Shown here in pieces: positions 5,896 to 35,941 of a stretch of 54,449 nucleotides of DNA. The notes beneath the pieces were generated by a model, which worked only from the letters and a program-made list of their open reading frames with translations, ran no database searches and was not told where the DNA came from. A program made the position numbers and the translations under genes. Every line of letters starts with the position of its first letter. Positions within the stretch are counted from its first letter, which is position 1. Source of the stretch: an uncultured Eubacteriales bacterium (GTDB lineage Bacteria > Bacillota > Clostridia > Christensenellales > CAG-138); the NCBI GenBank assembly GCA_902794055.1, contig CADBGC010000008.1, positions 1 through 54,449 on the forward strand. The letters run 5' to 3'.

Positions 5896-6456
5896 ATGCT
5901 TTTTATTAATCTTGCCGCAGCAGCGGGGCAGATATCAAGCGAGGCCGGCTTCTTTACGGAATGGCTGCATGGCATGAACATCGGCGGCGTTATCCTACTG
6001 TTGGTGGGCATTGCGCTGATCGTAGTTGAAATGGTCATCCCCGGCTTTGGCATCGCGGGTCTTTCGGGAAGCGCGGCGGTCGTTGCGGGTCTCATCGTAA
6101 GCTCCAAGAGCTTCGGTGCGGCGATGTTCACGCTGGCAATAGTCGTGCTTCTGCTTTGTATAGCGGCGCTGATAGTGTTTAAAGTCGTTTTCGGAAAGGG
6201 AAGGAAAAACTCCAAGCTGGTTCTGAACGACAGCATCACAAGCGGCTCCACCGATATTTCCGCGCTCGATGCGAAGGAGATGATCGGCAAGGAAGGTACC
6301 ACGCTGACGGCGCTTCGTCCCTCCGGCATCGCAATGATCAACGGCAGGCGACTCGACGTGCTCGCAGAGGGCGAATACATTGAAAAGGGCGAACCCGTCA
6401 AGGTATCCGCTATTCAGGGTCTTCGTATAAGCGTTGTTAAGAATACCGGCAAATGA
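5896..6456 (+). CDS. NfeD-family membrane protein
   Basis: Hydrophobic N-terminal half plus a C-terminal OB-like tail (GKEGTTLTALRPSGIAMINGRRLDVLAEGEYIEKGEPVKV). The ATG at 5896 has a GAGGTG RBS, whereas the track start at 5863 is a GTG. The arrangement nfeD, small ORF, floA matches the Bacillus yqeZ-yqfA locus. Confidence 0.8.
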   Translation: MLFINLAAAAGQISSEAGFFTEWLHGMNIGGVILLLVGIALIVVEMVIPGFGIAGLSGSAAVVAGLIVSSKSFGAAMFTLAIVVLLLCIAALIVFKVVFGKGRKNSKLVLNDSITSGSTDISALDAKEMIGKEGTTLTALRPSGIAMINGRRLDVLAEGEYIEKGEPVKVSAIQGLRISVVKNTGK

Positions 6457-6671
6457 CGGAGAATAATTCATACGAAAAAAAGCGCGAACGCTTCATGAAA
6501 AGCGGCTACTACGATGCGAGCGACGTGATCGAGGCGGCGGATAAGGCATACGATCAAAGCCTCGATGAAGCCGAACTCAAAAAGCGCCGCATCAGGGACT
6601 GGATATTCATTGTCATCGGCGTTCCCGCATTCATTGCGTTCATGTATCTCATCGTTATGATCTTCCGCTGA
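6453..6671 (+). CDS. Small membrane protein (72 aa, C-terminal TM helix)
   Basis: ATGA start/stop overlap with nfeD. Single TM helix WIFIVIGVPAFIAFMYLIVMIF. Confidence 0.6.
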   Translation: MTENNSYEKKRERFMKSGYYDASDVIEAADKAYDQSLDEAELKKRRIRDWIFIVIGVPAFIAFMYLIVMIFR

Positions 6672-8664: not shown

Positions 8665-9780
8665 ATGTTTAAATACTACTCGCCCGTGGATGATGCAATA
8701 ATCTTCTTCACGTCCAAGGTCAACAAAAGCATGACCAATATCGACCTGATGAGGACCTTGAATAAGAATCATCCCGCCCTCGAAAAGAAGCTTGAACGAG
8801 TGCTAAGGCCTTCGGTCGAGCTTGAAAAGAAGCTGAATGCGGCTATAAAAACCATCGACATGGACTATGAGTTCCTGTTTATGCTGGATCAGACGGCCGA
8901 CGGCAACGCGGATCATCTATACAACCCCGCATGGCTGCTGTTCAGCTATTGCTCGGGAAGGGGAGAGTTTTCCACGGATATGGCGACCGAGATCAAAAAC
9001 CTCCACGCGCTTCCGCAGCACAAAAGAGACGTGCTTTTCCTCAACTATTTGCGCGATCTCAAGATATTCGAGAGCCCGAGCCATATTCCGAACGTTACCG
9101 AGGAAAACTGCGGTCAGATCATCGAAACCATGCGCAGCCTGAATATGGATCAGAGTGTGCGCACGAGGCTTATCGAGCTGTACGTCAATTTCGATGAATA
9201 CGTTTCCCGCCTGAACACCATTCTCAAGCCCGCGGTGGACGTTATAATAGCAAACGAAGCGATCTATGCCGACGACGTCAAAAAGAACGAAGAAGCGATC
9301 GATGCTCTTGGCGGTCTGCGCGGCGTTGTGAAGCAGAAGTACGGCTTTGCAATGAAGGAGGGCGTTGCGGAGCGCATGCACCTTTGCGTGCTCATCCCCA
9401 ATAAGGCCAGCCTCAGGGACGACGTGAACGACAACGTGGACGCATTCTTCGGCGTGAATGTGCTCGAGCTGGTGGATATCGTTTTCTCAGGCCGCGAGAA
9501 TCAGAAGCTTTCCACAATGTTTAAGATGCTCTCCGATGAAACCAGACTTGAGATCCTGCACTCCATCTGTAAAAAGCCGATGTACGGGCTTGAGCTTGCG
9601 GAGCAGTTCTCCATCTCCGCGCCAACCGTTTCCTACCACATGCGTAAGCTCGGCATGGGTGGCTTCACCGAGAGCTATTTCGACAGCGGAAGAACCTACT
9701 ACCGCGCGAATATCGATAATATCAAGCGCTTCGTCAAGAGCTTTGAGGATTTCCTTTCCGCCGAGCCGGAGCAGCAGTAA
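8665..9780 (+). CDS. ArsR-family winged-HTH regulator with a long N-terminal domain of unknown function
   Basis: C-terminal LSDETRLEILHSICKKPMYGLELAEQFSISAPTVSYHMRKL. The ATG at 8665 follows a GGAGG RBS. The track start at 8548 lies inside the promoter. Confidence 0.75.
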   Translation: MFKYYSPVDDAIIFFTSKVNKSMTNIDLMRTLNKNHPALEKKLERVLRPSVELEKKLNAAIKTIDMDYEFLFMLDQTADGNADHLYNPAWLLFSYCSGRGEFSTDMATEIKNLHALPQHKRDVLFLNYLRDLKIFESPSHIPNVTEENCGQIIETMRSLNMDQSVRTRLIELYVNFDEYVSRLNTILKPAVDVIIANEAIYADDVKKNEEAIDALGGLRGVVKQKYGFAMKEGVAERMHLCVLIPNKASLRDDVNDNVDAFFGVNVLELVDIVFSGRENQKLSTMFKMLSDETRLEILHSICKKPMYGLELAEQFSISAPTVSYHMRKLGMGGFTESYFDSGRTYYRANIDNIKRFVKSFEDFLSAEPEQQ

Positions 9781-29935: not shown

Positions 29936-29994
29936 ATACTGAATAGACAAGCAAAAGACAGGTGAAAAGTCATTTGAAACGCTGAAACAAAGCC

Positions 29995-30024
29995 TTGATA
30001 AGTGAACGTATGATAAGGTATAAT
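29995..30024 (+). promoter_or_regulatory. Putative promoter upstream of the CPBP gene
   Basis: TTGATA, an 18-nt spacer, then TATAAT (30019-30024). Confidence 0.5.
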
Positions 30025-30130
30025 GAATTATGGAGGCGAGCGGCGGTATGAATGCTATATGTTTTGCAGGCTTGCGTTTAGGGCATGAAGCGTAAATCGG
30101 AAGGAATAAAGAGAATAAATATCGATATTC

Positions 30131-30739
30131 GTGCATTTTATCGTATTCTCTTGTGCATGGTTTTTTACTGCGCTGATCGCTGTCGATCTGATAAAACAAT
30201 TCATTCTTATTGCGGTTTCGATGAACATTGTCCTTTTATCGGTAAGCAATTCGCTGATGAAAAAGGATTTCGGTATCGAAGCTTTTGCCTGTAGGAACAA
30301 GCGCAGGATCGTTACGGCTTTCTTTAACGGATTTTTGTATGCTCTGCTGTTCGCTGTTGCGGTCTTTTTTACGTTCGCCGTTTTTCAGGACGTTACCTTT
30401 CTGGTGAAACAAGGTAATCTTGGGTTTTGGTCGCTATTCGTATGGGTGATAGTTCAAATTATAACTGCATTCGCAGAGGAGCTGTTTTTCCGAATCTATG
30501 CTTATGAGGTGCTTTTTTCCGCATTCCGAAGAAAGCTTCTATCAATAGTGCTTATATCGCTTATGTTTGCAGGTGTTCATATAGCCTTGCACGGCAATAT
30601 CAAGCAGTTCTTTGTTTCTTTGGTTTTTAGCTTTTATGCTTTCGGCATCAAAGAAAAAAGACCCGATGACACCCTCTATTATTTGGGATGGATGCACTTT
30701 ATATACAACTGCCTTGCGCGTTTCGTGTTTTCTGTTTAA
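30131..30739 (+). CDS. CPBP-family intramembrane glutamic endopeptidase (CAAX protease / Abi-like)
   Basis: Motif 1 EELFFRIYAY and motif 2 FAGVHI in a polytopic membrane protein. It lies in a lower-GC segment. The start codon is uncertain (GTG 30131 or an internal ATG). Confidence 0.75.
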   Translation: MHFIVFSCAWFFTALIAVDLIKQFILIAVSMNIVLLSVSNSLMKKDFGIEAFACRNKRRIVTAFFNGFLYALLFAVAVFFTFAVFQDVTFLVKQGNLGFWSLFVWVIVQIITAFAEELFFRIYAYEVLFSAFRRKLLSIVLISLMFAGVHIALHGNIKQFFVSLVFSFYAFGIKEKRPDDTLYYLGWMHFIYNCLARFVFSV

Positions 30740-31450: not shown

Positions 31451-32869
31451 GTGACCGGCGCGCAATCAAAAAAGGGCTTTTTAGGCAAAAAAGACGTTGA
31501 TATGACGGAGGGCAATATACTGCGGCATCTGATCGCATTCGCCCTTCCGCTTCTTCTCGGCAATATTTTTCAGCAGCTTTACAACACTGTGGACACCTGG
31601 GTGGTGGGCAACTACGTCAGCAAGGAGGCGTTTTCGGCGGTCGGCACCGTTGGCCCGATCATGAACACGCTTATCGGAACCTTCATGGGTCTCTCCGCGG
31701 GCGCGGGCGTGGTCATCTCGCAGTATTACGGCGCCAAGCAGCACGAAAAGGTTCAGGATACGGTGCATACCGCGCTCACGCTGACGCTTATCCTCGGCGC
31801 GGTCTTTACGGCGCTCGGCATATTTATGACGCCGTATATGCTCAAGCTGATGAAAACGCCCGAAACGGTTTTGCCCGAGGCAACGCGCTATCTTCAGATC
31901 TATTTTTCCGGCATTCTCGGCCTCATGGTCTACAATATCGGCTCCGGCATAATGCGCGCGGTCGGCGACTCGCAGCGCCCGTTCATGTTTCTTTGCGTTT
32001 CAGCGGGAACGAACACCGTGCTCGATCTTCTGTTCGTTCTCGGCTTCAAGATGGGCGTGGAGGGCGTTGCGCTCGCAACGATAATCGCGCAGTTCGTTTC
32101 GGCGGCGCTCGTGGTATTCACCCTTATGCGCTCCGACAACTGCTGTAAGCTCGTGCCGAAAAAGCTTCGCATCCACGGCGAAATGCTCAAAAAGATACTC
32201 GCCGTCGGCATCCCCGCCGCGCTTCAGATGGCCGTTACCTCGTTCTCAAACGTTTTCGTGCAGAGCTATATCAACCATTTCGGCGAGGACTGCATGGGCG
32301 GCTGGACGGCATACGCCAAGATCGACCAGTTCCTATTCCTGCCGATGCAGAGCATATCGCTTGCGGGAACCACCTTCGTTGGTCAGAATCTCGGCGTGGG
32401 CAACACGAAGCGTGCCAAAAAGGGCATAGGCTACGCTCTGGCGATCTCCGCCGCCGCAACGGTCATTCTGATGATACCTGTGCTCGCGTTCGCGCCCAAG
32501 CTCGTTGAATTCTTCAACGGTTCGCCCGAGGTAGTCAAATACGGATCCATGCTTCTTAGGCTCATATCGCCCTTCTACGTGCTTTGCTGCGTTAATCAGG
32601 TGCTTGCGGGTTCTCTTCGCGGCGCGGGCAACAGCCGAACGCCGATGTTTATAATGCTTGGAAGCTTCGTTCTGTTCCGCCAGATCTATCTTTACATTAT
32701 GGCAAACTATATCAGCAACACGATAAAGCCAATTGCGCTTTCCTACCCTGCGGGCTGGCTCGTTTGCTCCACAATAACGCTTATCTACTTCCTCAAGGCA
32801 AACTGGGATAAATACAGGCTCGTTAAGGATGATGAAAATGATAAAAGTCAAGATAAAAACATGACTTGA
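31451..32869 (+). CDS. MATE family efflux transporter (intact reading frame; its 3' end abuts an inserted islet)
   Basis: 12-TM profile and the signature ALPLLLGNIFQQLYNTVDTWVVGN. The last roughly 13 codons (DDENDKSQDKNMT) are AT-rich, unlike the rest of the gene. Confidence 0.9.
   Translation: MTGAQSKKGFLGKKDVDMTEGNILRHLIAFALPLLLGNIFQQLYNTVDTWVVGNYVSKEAFSAVGTVGPIMNTLIGTFMGLSAGAGVVISQYYGAKQHEKVQDTVHTALTLTLILGAVFTALGIFMTPYMLKLMKTPETVLPEATRYLQIYFSGILGLMVYNIGSGIMRAVGDSQRPFMFLCVSAGTNTVLDLLFVLGFKMGVEGVALATIIAQFVSAALVVFTLMRSDNCCKLVPKKLRIHGEMLKKILAVGIPAALQMAVTSFSNVFVQSYINHFGEDCMGGWTAYAKIDQFLFLPMQSISLAGTTFVGQNLGVGNTKRAKKGIGYALAISAAATVILMIPVLAFAPKLVEFFNGSPEVVKYGSMLLRLISPFYVLCCVNQVLAGSLRGAGNSRTPMFIMLGSFVLFRQIYLYIMANYISNTIKPIALSYPAGWLVCSTITLIYFLKANWDKYRLVKDDENDKSQDKNMT
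32736..32829 (+). repeat. Left copy of an imperfect direct repeat of about 95 bp (MATE 3' end)
   Basis: It aligns with 34282-34375 at roughly 85% identity by eye, including the identical 26-mer tgggataaatacaggctcgttaagga. Confidence 0.85.
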
Positions 32870-32917
32870 TTGTATGCAATTAACTAATGCCAATTTAGAA
32901 AGGAAAGAACAGAGAAC

Positions 32918-34276
32918 ATGAGTAATGGGTACATTAATGAAATTGAGTATGCGAGATTCGTTTTGAATTCGCTATATAAAGATAATCCTAAACTCGTCGA
33001 ACAATATAGAGTAGAAAGCGATAAAAATCGATGGTATATTTATGATGCGGTTGCCTTTGGTGAATTGCGGCTGTCGTCGTTCGGCGCGAAGGATATTCTT
33101 GCTGATAGAATTGCAATTGAAATTAAAAACACACGAACCTTGAACGACAGTACTATTCGTTCCTTTATTCACCTTGCGGAGGAGCAAGGCTTTGATGCAG
33201 TGGTTTTTATATTTAATGGCAAGCCGAGAGAATCATATTATGATTATAATAGCGATAAAATCCAAATCTGCTTTATTCCCGCAGAAGGTAAAAATAATGA
33301 ATACAACCGCGCAGCTAAGAACAAAGTTGGAGTTGATCCTGCGCTTTTGATTGATGAATATACATTGTCGCGTTTGAAGGAAGCAAAGAATGATTTAGCA
33401 TTTGCCATAGGTGCAGGCTGCTCACGAGGATCACATATAAGTGATTGGAAAACACTTAGCAAAGCGCTTGGATACGAACTTCTGTATGAAATTGTAGCGA
33501 ACGCCGCAGAATCAATGTATAGGAGCAAAGTGATAACTGATAGATTAAACGATGGGGTTTTTGAGTGCTTTGATTCCACATCTGCGCTGGATGCGATTTA
33601 TCGATGTGTCTATGAATCTGACTATGAATCTAAGTCAAAGATTAATTATTGGAAAGCAATAAAAAGGGTGCTTTACATGGAATATGATGCTGAGAAGAAG
33701 GATAATAAGTTAATGGAAGCAATATCCAACTGCATTGAGAGAAACCATGTTAAGGAAGTTATTAACTATAATTTTGATTCTGTTCTTGAACAATATATGA
33801 ATTCGGCCTACAAATCTACTGTGAAAGAAGTTGAGCAGAGTCAAGTGACAATAAAAGAGTGTACGATTTCCCATGTTCATGGTTATATACCGTATGATTA
33901 TCGCGGAAAAGGGACTGTTGGAAACTTTGTTTTTATCGACACTGAATACTATGATAATATGATGGAAAGGGAGAACTTTACAAACAGCGTTCAGAAAAGA
34001 ATACTTGAAAGTAAAAATGTTATTTTTGTTGGCTTTTCCTTTACAGATACAAATGTGAAAGAGATTCTGCGTGAGCGACACAATAATAGTGAACCCTCGC
34101 AGAACTCAATTTTTGCTTTCCGTAAACTGCCGACCTTCGACTTTGAAGGAACAAATAATGCACTAATTGAGAAGAGGTATAAGGATCTTTTTGAAAAGTA
34201 TTTCGGATCACTGGGCGTCATAGTGGTATGGGTAAAGGACTTTAATGATATTCCGAAAATTATAAATATGATATAA
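32918..34276 (+). CDS. SIR2-like (SIR2_2 / defence-associated sirtuin type) protein with an N-terminal PD-(D/E)xK-like module, 452 aa
   Basis: Clean ORF in an AT-rich islet. The C-terminal half carries LAFAIGAGCS (GAGxS), VINYNFDSVLE (NYD/LE block), SHVHGYIP (catalytic-His block) and VIFVGFSFTDTN (GxSxxD). The N-terminus carries YIYD...DRIAIEIKN. Confidence 0.8.
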   Translation: MSNGYINEIEYARFVLNSLYKDNPKLVEQYRVESDKNRWYIYDAVAFGELRLSSFGAKDILADRIAIEIKNTRTLNDSTIRSFIHLAEEQGFDAVVFIFNGKPRESYYDYNSDKIQICFIPAEGKNNEYNRAAKNKVGVDPALLIDEYTLSRLKEAKNDLAFAIGAGCSRGSHISDWKTLSKALGYELLYEIVANAAESMYRSKVITDRLNDGVFECFDSTSALDAIYRCVYESDYESKSKINYWKAIKRVLYMEYDAEKKDNKLMEAISNCIERNHVKEVINYNFDSVLEQYMNSAYKSTVKEVEQSQVTIKECTISHVHGYIPYDYRGKGTVGNFVFIDTEYYDNMMERENFTNSVQKRILESKNVIFVGFSFTDTNVKEILRERHNNSEPSQNSIFAFRKLPTFDFEGTNNALIEKRYKDLFEKYFGSLGVIVVWVKDFNDIPKIINMI

Positions 34277-34280
34277 TTAC

Positions 34281-34403
34281 ACCCTCGCCTACCCCGCCGG
34301 CTGGCTGGTTTGCTCCACCATAACGTTCATCTATTTCCTCAGGGCAAATTGGGATAAATACAGGCTCGTTAAGGACGAGGAAACTGAGTCGAGCGGCAAA
34401 TAA
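34281..34403 (+). pseudogene. Orphan 3' fragment of a MATE gene (right repeat copy plus its own stop)
   Basis: It translates in frame to TLAYPAGWLVCSTITFIYFLRANWDKYRLVKDEETESSGK*. The intact gene end reads ALSYPAGWLVCSTITLIYFLKANWDKYRLVKDDEND... The fragment has no start codon or RBS, and its GC is host-like. Confidence 0.8.
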
Positions 34404-34409
34404 TCGGTG

Positions 34410-34438
34410 TTGAACTATTCTCTCTTCTATGTTAAAAT
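34410..34438 (+). promoter_or_regulatory. Putative promoter
   Basis: TTGAAC, a 17-nt spacer, then TAAAAT. Confidence 0.5.
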
Positions 34439-34495
34439 ATTCGTCATAGCGGCGTAAAAGGCCGTAACGCCCTAAAAGAGAGAGTAGAGAACGCT

Positions 34496-35941
34496 ATGGA
34501 AAACCCGATAACCGAAATTGAACTGCTCGAAACGGAGCAAAAAAAGCCCCGGTTTCCACGCGGAAAGGCGCTTGCGGTGCTTATCGTCCGCATCCTTGCG
34601 GTCGCTGCCGCCGTCTGCGGCTTCGTGCTGTATGCGCTTGCGCATAAAAACTATAAGCTCACCGAGTTCGGCATGTCCATCGTAACGCTCGGACTCTTCG
34701 TTTTGATATTTATTTCCGCCGCGCCGAAGCTTGTGGATCTGATCGTTGGAGACAGCAGCATCGAGTATCTTGAGCGAAGCGCATCGAGGCGCGCTTGGCG
34801 CAATTTCTTTATCATCTGCATAGCCGCGCTATTGCTGCACGCGGCTGCCGGTATAATCGGCACTTTCATATTCAAAACCTTCAATCAATACGGCGCTTCC
34901 GTTAAGGACGTTTTCAAGCTCTGGCGCAATTCGTGGATGAAGGGCAACACCGACGCGGGGCATTATCTCAAGATAGCCGAAAACTGGTACGTTAAGGAAG
35001 GCAACGACAGGCTTCTTATCGTTTTCCTGCCGATGCTCCCCGTGCTGATTCGCGCGTTCAACCTCGTTTTTCACGACAGCTTCATCTCGGCTCAGATCAT
35101 AAACGCGCTTGCCTCCGCGCTCGCCTCGGGCATGGTCTATATGACCCTGCTTCCCATAATCGGCAGCCGCCGCAGCAAGGTCGGCGCGTTCGTTTCCATA
35201 CTGCTTCCCGGTATGATCTTCATGAATTCGCCGATGAGCGAGCCGCTTTTCCTGCTCTTCACCGCCTGCGCGTTCTTCTTCATGCAGCGAAAGCAGTTCG
35301 TGCTTTCGGGCATCTTCGTCGCCTGCGCGGGCTTCACCCGTTCGCTCGGCGTGATTGCCGCAGTTCCGCTCGCTCTGGTCGGAATAGGGCATATCGTGCG
35401 CCTTATGCGCGATAAAAAGCCGTGGGGCAAGGCGTTTGCGCTGCTTGCAGTCGGTCTTGTTATCTCCACGTTCGGAACGCTCGGCTATCTCTATATCAAC
35501 TATTCGATACATGGGGATGCGCTGAAATTTTTTGAGTTCCAGTCCGGCAATTGGCATCAGAATTTCAATCCATTCTTCGACACCACGCGCTATATGCTGA
35601 ATTATGCGGTGCGCTACTATCAGCAGGGCAGCATCGAAAAGCTCGTTTCGCTCTGGGTGCCGGGTCTTATCGCTATATTCGGCTCGCTCATACTCATCGA
35701 GGCGAAGGCGAAAAAGCTTCCCGCGAGCTACACCGTTTACTTTCTCGCCTATTCTGCGGTCGCCATCGGCTGCACCTGGCTGCTTTCAGCCATGCGCTAT
35801 ATCTCGGCGGCGCTGCCGGTTACGGCGGCCATCGCGCACTGTGCCGATAAAAAATGGAAAACGGCGGCGCTTTTCATAATACTTGCCGCGCTCTATCTCG
35901 GTTACACCTATATGTATATGATGCGCTGGGAAACCTATTGA
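34496..35941 (+). CDS. Polytopic membrane protein, PIG-V / PMT_2-like mannosyltransferase candidate
   Basis: About 11 TM helices, with the motif GHYLKIAENWYVKEGNDRLLIVFLPMLPVLIRAF, which is typical of bacterial PIG-V-like glycosyltransferases. Confidence 0.6.
   Translation: MENPITEIELLETEQKKPRFPRGKALAVLIVRILAVAAAVCGFVLYALAHKNYKLTEFGMSIVTLGLFVLIFISAAPKLVDLIVGDSSIEYLERSASRRAWRNFFIICIAALLLHAAAGIIGTFIFKTFNQYGASVKDVFKLWRNSWMKGNTDAGHYLKIAENWYVKEGNDRLLIVFLPMLPVLIRAFNLVFHDSFISAQIINALASALASGMVYMTLLPIIGSRRSKVGAFVSILLPGMIFMNSPMSEPLFLLFTACAFFFMQRKQFVLSGIFVACAGFTRSLGVIAAVPLALVGIGHIVRLMRDKKPWGKAFALLAVGLVISTFGTLGYLYINYSIHGDALKFFEFQSGNWHQNFNPFFDTTRYMLNYAVRYYQQGSIEKLVSLWVPGLIAIFGSLILIEAKAKKLPASYTVYFLAYSAVAIGCTWLLSAMRYISAALPVTAAIAHCADKKWKTAALFIILAALYLGYTYMYMMRWETY

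Follow-up and report, generated by a model that had tools for sequence, protein, structure and literature searches.

A single-gene SIR2_2 islet bracketed by two versions of a MATE gene end in an uncultured Clostridia bacterium: a probable scar of one reciprocal exchange

Results

A lone SIR2_2 gene lies at the end of a MATE gene

The window, that is, the whole stretch of 54,449 nucleotides analyzed here, comes from contig CADBGC010000008.1 of an uncultured Eubacteriales bacterium (GTDB lineage CAG-138; source genome G000). In it, an intact MATE efflux gene is followed by a lone SIR2_2 gene, an orphan duplicate of the MATE 3' end, and a gene for a membrane protein (Table 1). GC content is 0.31-0.42 across 32.8-34.2 kb versus 0.50-0.62 in the flanks, and the single-gene islet has a GC content of 35%. 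The SIR2_2 gene is the one ORF of the islet, the other ORFs of at least 60 aa having no family match. Neither a terminator nor a convincing promoter was found in the 48-nt spacer between the MATE stop codon and the SIR2 start codon, so the cargo gene is probably transcribed by read-through from the MATE promoter.

Table 1. Coordinates of the islet, its junctions and the neighboring genes in the window.
Feature	Coordinates	Strand	Remarks
MATE efflux gene, 472 aa, intact, chimeric	31451..32869	+	Host 5' part, 3' end probably element-supplied; Pfam MatE E 6e-62
Repeat copy A (attL-like)	32738..32841	+	Host-type to about position 11, then element-type
Exchange interval in copy A, repeat positions 1-19	32742..32760		From the table of informative sites
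AT-rich surrogate tail, DDENDKSQDKNMT then stop	32828..32869	+	In place of native DEETESSGK and stop
48-nt spacer with RBS-like GAAAGGAAAG	32870..32917	+	Between MATE stop and SIR2 start
Cargo gene, 452-aa protein	32918..34276	+	PD-(D/E)xK-like N-terminal module and SIR2_2 domain; Pfam SIR2_2 E 1e-16; PADLOC ThsA E 4e-15
7-nt element-borne spacer TTACACC	34277..34283	+	SIR2 stop to copy B; same in both occupied haplotypes, missing from all empty sites
Orphan reading frame, TLAY...DEETESSGK then stop	34281..34403	+	No start codon; out of SIR2 frame; matches C-terminus of P0063 exactly
Repeat copy B (attR-like)	34284..34387	+	Positions -1 to 11 element-type; the remainder is the native MATE 3' end, displaced
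Promoter-like site of downstream gene, TTGAAC-17-TAAAAT with TG	34410..34438	+	Intact past copy B; kept in empty sites
Downstream gene, 481-aa membrane protein (right flank)	34496..35941	+	Weak PMT_2 match; identity to empty-site contig L025 is 97-100% as far as about 35200

The cargo resembles the sirtuins of several antiphage systems. In 28 homologues, the motifs GAGCS (residues 165-169), NFDS (285-288) and HVHG (319-322) are invariant, including N285/D287 and H319/H321, and D43 and E68-x-K70 are nearly so. In an AF2 model (pLDDT 82), the N-terminal module is folded as alpha-beta-beta-beta-alpha-beta with D43, E68 and K70 on strands 2 and 3, and this placement of the acidic and lysine residues gives the module a PD-(D/E)xK layout. 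Foldseek returned a probability of 1.0 to ThsA, KomC and DSR2, and the SIR2 domain is nearest to those of ThsA, KomC/HAM-SIR2 and DSR2. The protein has both the domain and the conserved NAD-binding and catalytic residues of a SIR2_2 defence NADase. It shares the SIR2_2 fold and the conserved catalytic motifs with ThsA (Thoeris), DSR1/DSR2 and KomC/HAM-SIR2, but it lacks a SLOG domain, a ThsB partner or a large sensor domain, and is instead a lone gene with a PD-(D/E)xK-like N-terminal module of ~130 aa. We rejected an assignment to Thoeris itself: the matches are confined to the SIR2 part, there is no SLOG domain and no adjacent ThsB TIR gene, and the neighbors are the MATE gene and the PMT_2-like gene.

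The cargo is most likely an NAD-depleting antiphage gene. An antiphage role is predicted from context, as homologues adjoin type IIG restriction-modification and DUF1016/YhcG genes. The homologues with 45-52% identity lie in seven distinct contexts, next to DUF1016/YhcG nuclease-like, type IIG restriction-modification or acetyltransferase genes. The initial annotation had proposed that the SIR2-like gene travels beside MATE genes in donor genomes; this found no support, as in none of the seven contexts does a MATE gene lie within 5 kb, and bracketing repeats are missing from all seven. In the family itself, the 239 other genomes lack the SIR2 protein. The nearest distant homologues (L017-L020 and L021-L024) repeatedly adjoin a DUF1016/YhcG_C nuclease-like gene, on either side, and one lineage of them also adjoins a type IIG restriction-modification gene. 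The adjacency to DUF1016/YhcG_C could be a functional partnership or merely a common defence island.

The MATE gene end is present in two diverged copies

A repeat search detected a direct repeat of 100 nt (32742-32841 and 34288-34387; 88% identity; start-to-start spacing 1546), and the full repeat measures 104 nt (32738-32841 and 34284-34387) once the four nucleotides 5' of CCTA (CTCG/CTTT) are counted. We number the repeat from CCTA, so that position 1 is 32742 in copy A and 34288 in copy B. The match between the copies is not due to chance (BLAST E = 1.6e-30), and the longest run without an A/B difference is the 26-mer TGGGATAAATACAGGCTCGTTAAGGA. An orphan duplicate of the MATE 3' end had been described in the initial annotation with an identity of ~85%; it is indeed there, its identity measures 88%, and the other details hold. 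Copy B starts 7 nt past the SIR2 stop codon (TAA, 34274-34276). It reads TLAYPAGWLVCSTITFIYFLRANWDKYRLVKDEETESSGK up to a stop codon at 34401-34403, in a frame that differs from that of SIR2, and it has no start codon.

Within positions 1-88, seven of the nine differences between the copies fall at third codon positions and the remaining two are conservative (L/F and K/R), indicating that both copies evolved and diverged as parts of working MATE genes. Among the 240 genomes of the family, the source genome alone has two copies of the MATE 3' segment; each of the 12 other family genomes with a detectable match has one copy.

Related strains carry the empty site

Among 41 related genomes searched, several congeners have the MATE gene next to the downstream 481-aa gene, and all of these lack the SIR2 gene. 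In one of them (G013), the matches to the MATE gene and to the downstream region overlap by exactly the 100-nt repeat: a single copy runs to ...DDETEPSGK and a stop codon, and then into the downstream gene. A MATE protein search yielded a 468-aa protein (P0063; 96% identity) whose C-terminus is letter-identical to the translation of the orphan copy. The contigs that encode it (L025 and L026) are an empty site, in which the 468-aa MATE protein ends in ...DEETESSGK and its gene is followed by the downstream gene. This is exactly the empty site that had been predicted from the window, i.e., a MATE gene ending in ...DEETESSGK followed by the sequence from 34404 onward. In all, empty sites with one copy were found in G013, L025/L026, L027 and L042-L044. 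Relatives that lack the SIR2 gene and keep both copies, which would have spoken against an insertion, were not encountered; those lacking the gene carry one copy.

Within the MATE gene, the window and L025 share 97-100% identity at 31548-32330, and they do so again from 34308 to about 35200. From position 12 to the end of the repeat, copy B of the window matches the native gene end of L025 at 89 of 89 positions; the native end of G013 is matched at 88 of 89, by copy B of the second occupied haplotype described below (L015). The comparison with L025/L026 bears out the proposal that the incoming DNA carried its own surrogate MATE 3' end with an AT-rich tail, and that the native end was displaced downstream. 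The identification of the orphan copy with the native end stands from position 12 on and fails for the first ~11 nt, which are element-borne. We also considered copy B as the foreign copy, since within the repeat its distance from G013 exceeds that of copy A; the existence of L025, an empty site of the window type, contradicted this reading. We place no weight on the CTCG stub 5' of CCTA as a mark of descent from 'ALAY' MATE alleles (L042-L044), there being 2 informative bases only. Among MATE relatives of odd length (P0071, P0073, P0076, P0077 and P0089), we found no other insertion at the MATE gene end.

The same islet occupies two diverged backgrounds

The exact SIR2 protein is encoded on three contigs from other samples (L045, L046 and L047), which agree with the window at 99.95-100% identity through both junctions. 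In a second occupied haplotype (L015/L016), the SIR2 protein is 98% identical and, on L015, the gene order is that of the window. The source genome is a 209-contig, 88%-complete metagenome-style assembly, so a chimeric metagenome contig or a collapsed repeat might be suspected, but we regard such an artefact as vanishingly improbable: both junctions recur in these three further, independent assemblies and in the second haplotype. The possibility that the duplication was made by assembly had been raised in the initial annotation, and at the level of assemblies it can be set aside on these grounds.

The islet of L015 is about 99% identical to that of the window (range 98-100%), and the tails differ by a single base (GATGAG for GATGAT, D to E). 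In contrast to the islet, the center of the L015 MATE gene and its downstream neighbor share just 69-91% identity with the window but 99-100% with G013. Judging from these alignments, one cassette is found in two diverged allele backgrounds, each of which is also known empty. We take this as evidence of at least two integrations of the cassette, in at least two diverged host backgrounds, the count of events following from the two occupied haplotypes.

The same data bear on whether the cassette could instead have entered once, long ago, and been inherited vertically, its flanks being later overwritten from empty-site strains by tracts that ended at the boundaries of homology. A conversion tract entering from the right would naturally end at the left edge of copy B, but the left-hand tract would have to end at the equal coordinate inside copy A, in two lineages. 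Moreover, the identity of the islets exceeds the genome background (92-97% between the source genome and G013) while the flanks differ by 10-30%, and G013 and L015 are nearly identical on both sides with the islet in L015 only. We therefore consider a single ancient insertion very improbable.

Several further features of these contigs and their surroundings were noted. Contig L016 (Logan SRR29460059, corresponding to 32803-34325 of the window) begins within the core of copy A and stops 38 nt inside copy B. A branch of the assembly graph at the repeat, or a mixture of occupied and empty strains in the sample, would produce such ends, and they are not evidence of a circle. From 31550 to 35900, the MATE gene and the downstream 481-aa gene form a patchwork of alleles in which identity to one relative swings from ~70% to 100% within a few hundred bases. 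L025 and L027 carry different alleles in one sample, and thus the locus looks like a local recombination hotspot. Lastly, a low-GC insertion with a CPBP/Rce1-like gene lies at 29939-30733 in both SIR2-occupied haplotypes (the window and L015; ~96% identical) and is missing from G013, L025, L027 and L044. This insertion co-occurs with the SIR2 islet but is more diverged and so, by sequence comparison, probably older.

Both repeat copies switch parents at their left end

Comparison with the native gene ends locates the point at which each copy changes from one parent to the other. In L015, copy A differs from the native end of G013 at positions 11, 32, 44, 89, 92 and 97, and copy B differs at -1, 0 and a private SNP at 77; the switch of parent in both copies therefore lies within positions 1-10. 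Copy B of the window differs from L025 at -1, 0, 5, 8 and 11 only. Over positions 12-100, its copy A matches copy A of L015 at 87 of 89 positions and L025 at 79 of 89; it is element-type from position 20 on and has the ACA marker (position 32) in common with L015 copy A. The exchange intervals are 1-10 in L015 and 12-19 in the window.

Position 11 itself is swapped between the two haplotypes (window A = G and B = C; L015 A = C and B = G), as two reciprocal outcomes are expected from one exchange region. The two intervals are compatible, as far as these sites show, with one overlap region of 6-8 bp that holds position 11, or with two different crossovers. We infer that the two states of position 11 may be the two segregants of a heteroduplex in such an overlap region.

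The element's GC-rich MATE fragment has two differences from the G013-type allele over positions 12-88 (at 32 and 44; ~97% identity), indicating that the fragment was acquired within the genus and not from a low-GC donor.

Because each pair of copies is a reciprocal mosaic of host and element with one switch coordinate, we favor a single reciprocal (Campbell-type) exchange with a circular partner. The initial annotation had suggested, as one of two options, a recombinase-free cassette exchanged by flanking homology, which entails two crossovers; the junctions instead point to a single reciprocal crossover located at the repeat's left end. The two-crossover alternative has a linear donor of MATE gene, islet and downstream DNA replacing the empty allele. 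The mosaic flanks do indicate frequent allelic replacement at the locus, and the tract 32568-32747 of the window is nearer to G013/L015 than the neighboring MATE sequence is. However, copy B becomes host-type within 11-19 nt of its left edge in both backgrounds, leaving the right-hand exchange with at most 19 nt of homology beside 1.4 kb of heterology, and an equal switch coordinate in copies A and B is not predicted. A double crossover is accordingly quite improbable.

A right junction with only a few bases of homology to the host, and the lack of a recombinase, could also point to homology-facilitated illegitimate recombination of linear DNA, in which the MATE fragment anchors the left side and CCTA microhomology joins the right. 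Such joins should not recur, yet both backgrounds have the identical right junction (TAATTACACCCTCG followed directly by CCTA), and the mechanism leaves the reciprocal state of position 11 unexplained. We give this mechanism very little credence.

Proposed integration by a single exchange

With a probability of about 0.7, which applies to the topology and excludes the enzyme, we conclude that the 127 bases that follow the SIR2 stop codon are an attR-like integration scar, left by a single reciprocal exchange with an element that carries its own version of the gene end. The cassette would be ~1546 bp long and would consist of a MATE 3' fragment of ~104 nt, the AT-rich tail of 13 codons, one promoterless SIR2_2 gene and 7 nt. 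A single reciprocal crossover of the Campbell type, located in the first 19 nt of the repeat, would insert it into the 3' end of the chromosomal MATE gene. A single reciprocal exchange implies a circular intermediate, the joint of which would read ...ATGATATAATTACACC, then the A-type repeat, then the AT-rich tail. The exchange would make copy A host-type and then element-type and copy B element-type and then host-type. The working MATE gene would now end in the surrogate brought by the element (copy A plus tail), and the last ~40 codons of the host gene would lie unused behind the cargo as copy B. The direct repeats should also permit precise loss of the islet.

The islet has two features of a site-specifically integrated element, namely direct repeats that bracket it and include the displaced native end, and a single-copy empty site in relatives. 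It does not have those of an autonomous integrative element (prophage, ICE or IME): its sole ORF is the SIR2_2 gene, and there is no integrase or recombinase gene. Some observations count against the proposed exchange. The occupied haplotypes number only two, and so do the events. The true recipient of the islet in the window is represented by L025, a contig that is not isogenic with the window at 32330-32747. In addition, the intervals 1-10 and 12-19 are disjoint unless position 11 lies within a heteroduplex overlap region. Finally, the strongly mosaic make-up of the MATE locus shows that RecA-driven exchange is clearly at work there.

Which enzyme might have carried out the exchange

Our tentative lean, held at somewhat less than even odds, is toward a site-specific recombinase of the tyrosine type supplied in trans, in which case the islet would count as a minimal CIME-like element. 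By definition, a CIME retains attL and attR and has lost the integration genes (PMC5704250). The att sites of a CIME are acted on in trans by the integrase of a related ICE or IME. The placement of the exchange in the islet matches that of integrase-borne elements inserted in gene 3' ends. Other contigs of the source genome (C61, C102, C128 and C202) encode three or four tyrosine recombinases, and none is tied to the MATE site. Searches of GTDB genomes, JGI metagenomes, IMG/VR, plasmids and phages turned up neither a cognate integrase nor an autonomous relative that has these arms: scans for exact matches to both islet ends returned none in GTDB genomes, JGI metagenomes and IMG/VR, and a blastn search with the islet as query matched no plasmid or phage. 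The islet ends have no inverted repeats. A mismatch at position 11 within the overlap would be unusual for many tyrosine recombinases, and it counts against that enzyme.

A possible, if doubtful, alternative leaves the topology unchanged and dispenses with the recombinase. Recombination between copies A and B would loop out a circle, which would re-enter another MATE gene through host RecA acting on the 104-nt homology, and the MATE fragment would serve as a homing arm; it is the lean toward an enzyme in trans that this contests, not the single exchange. Several observations favor it: the cassette has no recombinase and no cognate element turned up in any database searched, homologous recombination among strains that occur together has made the locus a mosaic, the element's MATE fragment is so close to a G013-type allele as to look captured from a host, and the exchange intervals of the two events differ. 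On the other hand, 104 nt at 88-95% identity is a poor substrate for RecA, and the exchanges lie at the extreme left in identity runs of at most 10 nt (10 and 8 nt), while the runs of 20-32 nt that RecA would prefer are present and unused. If crossing were proportional to length, the joint chance of both exchanges falling in short runs on the left would be ~0.02. This placement is suggestive rather than decisive.

A self-sufficient version of the RecA route is also conceivable, and we regard it as unlikely. The islet would then be a recombinase-free 'homing' mini-cassette, consisting of a defence gene and ~100 nt of a host gene end, that forms a circle through its own repeats and re-enters that gene in another strain. 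If true, a defence gene could move without a mobility gene and leave the target gene working.

Discussion

An islet bracketed by a duplicated target-gene end is a known and ordinary kind of integration signature, which is well resolved here. It is of interest that the islet is minimal in size and lacks a recombinase, that its target (the end of a MATE gene) is new, and that there is evidence of at least two integrations. Single reciprocal exchange with an element-borne gene end, as we propose for the islet, has counterparts in several known systems. Integrase-borne islands, prophages and ICEs that insert in the 3' ends of tRNA, tmRNA and protein genes likewise bring a replacement 3' end and displace the native end to the far junction, but they encode an integrase beside attP, and the islet has none. 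Williams is said to have noted in 2002 that the exchange takes place at the 5' edge of the identity block and that the remaining block merely restores the gene.

The islet also resembles elements that have lost their integration genes. Streptococcal CIMEs at the 3' end of fda keep the target gene intact, as is the case for the MATE gene. Those CIMEs have short repeats of ~27 bp. In comparison with them, the islet is only ~1.5 kb long, with one ORF, a diverged repeat of 104 nt and a MATE gene as target, and no cognate ICE, IME or integrase was identified.

Other systems share part of the architecture. Non-replicating plasmids that carry an internal or 3' gene fragment, and integrate by the single crossover of Campbell-type insertion-duplication, likewise produce a bracketing duplication and reciprocal mosaic copies; that process is engineered and RecA-dependent, whereas the one proposed here is natural and its exchange is confined to the first 19 nt. 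Integron gene cassettes are, similarly, small promoterless single-ORF units that lie behind a resident promoter and depend on a recombinase in trans, and the circular form that we postulate for the islet would extend the likeness. However, the islet has no attC hairpin and no core site, and its partner is the end of a coding gene. Single-strand DNA folds of both copies on both strands, which we examined for an attC-like structure, were no better than those of shuffled sequences (z about 0). A transposon or IS was rejected as an explanation: there are no terminal inverted repeats and no transposase, and the duplication is 104 nt long and diverged.

Many antiphage genes are found in variable spots without mobility genes, and the SIR2_2 islet has a bearing on their movement. 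E. coli hotspot #37 and the core defence hotspots of P. aeruginosa hold variable defence cargo between conserved genes without the hallmarks of mobile elements, as does the MATE locus. For hotspot #37, 68% of the occupants have no detectable mobile element (PMC10121019), and the P. aeruginosa hotspots are reported to hold defence cargo of this kind too (PMC10250203). In comparison with those hotspots, the junctions of the SIR2_2 islet are resolved to about 20 bases and the topology of the event is visible. Either a recombinase acting in trans recognizes the end of the MATE gene, or a stretch of 100 nt borrowed from the host suffices for a defence gene to pass between strains.

Orphan duplicates of gene ends provide a usable search key for minimal islets in metagenome-assembled genomes. 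The source genome itself contains a second low-GC cassette, on contig C1, where a 149-nt direct repeat (5985-6130 and 8815-8961; 81% identity; L034:3486-3631 and 6316-6462) brackets genes for a 164-aa ORF and a 546-aa HD-domain protein. This cassette has 38% GC versus 57% in its flanks and lies between an Indigoidine_A-like gene and clpB. The 149-nt repeat is not an obvious protein-gene end. At the same site, G011 and G016 have ~170 bp and G013 has a 70-83% diverged version, and the candidate empty sites are too diverged to align. The C1 cassette hints that a repeat-bracketed architecture may recur in the source genome.
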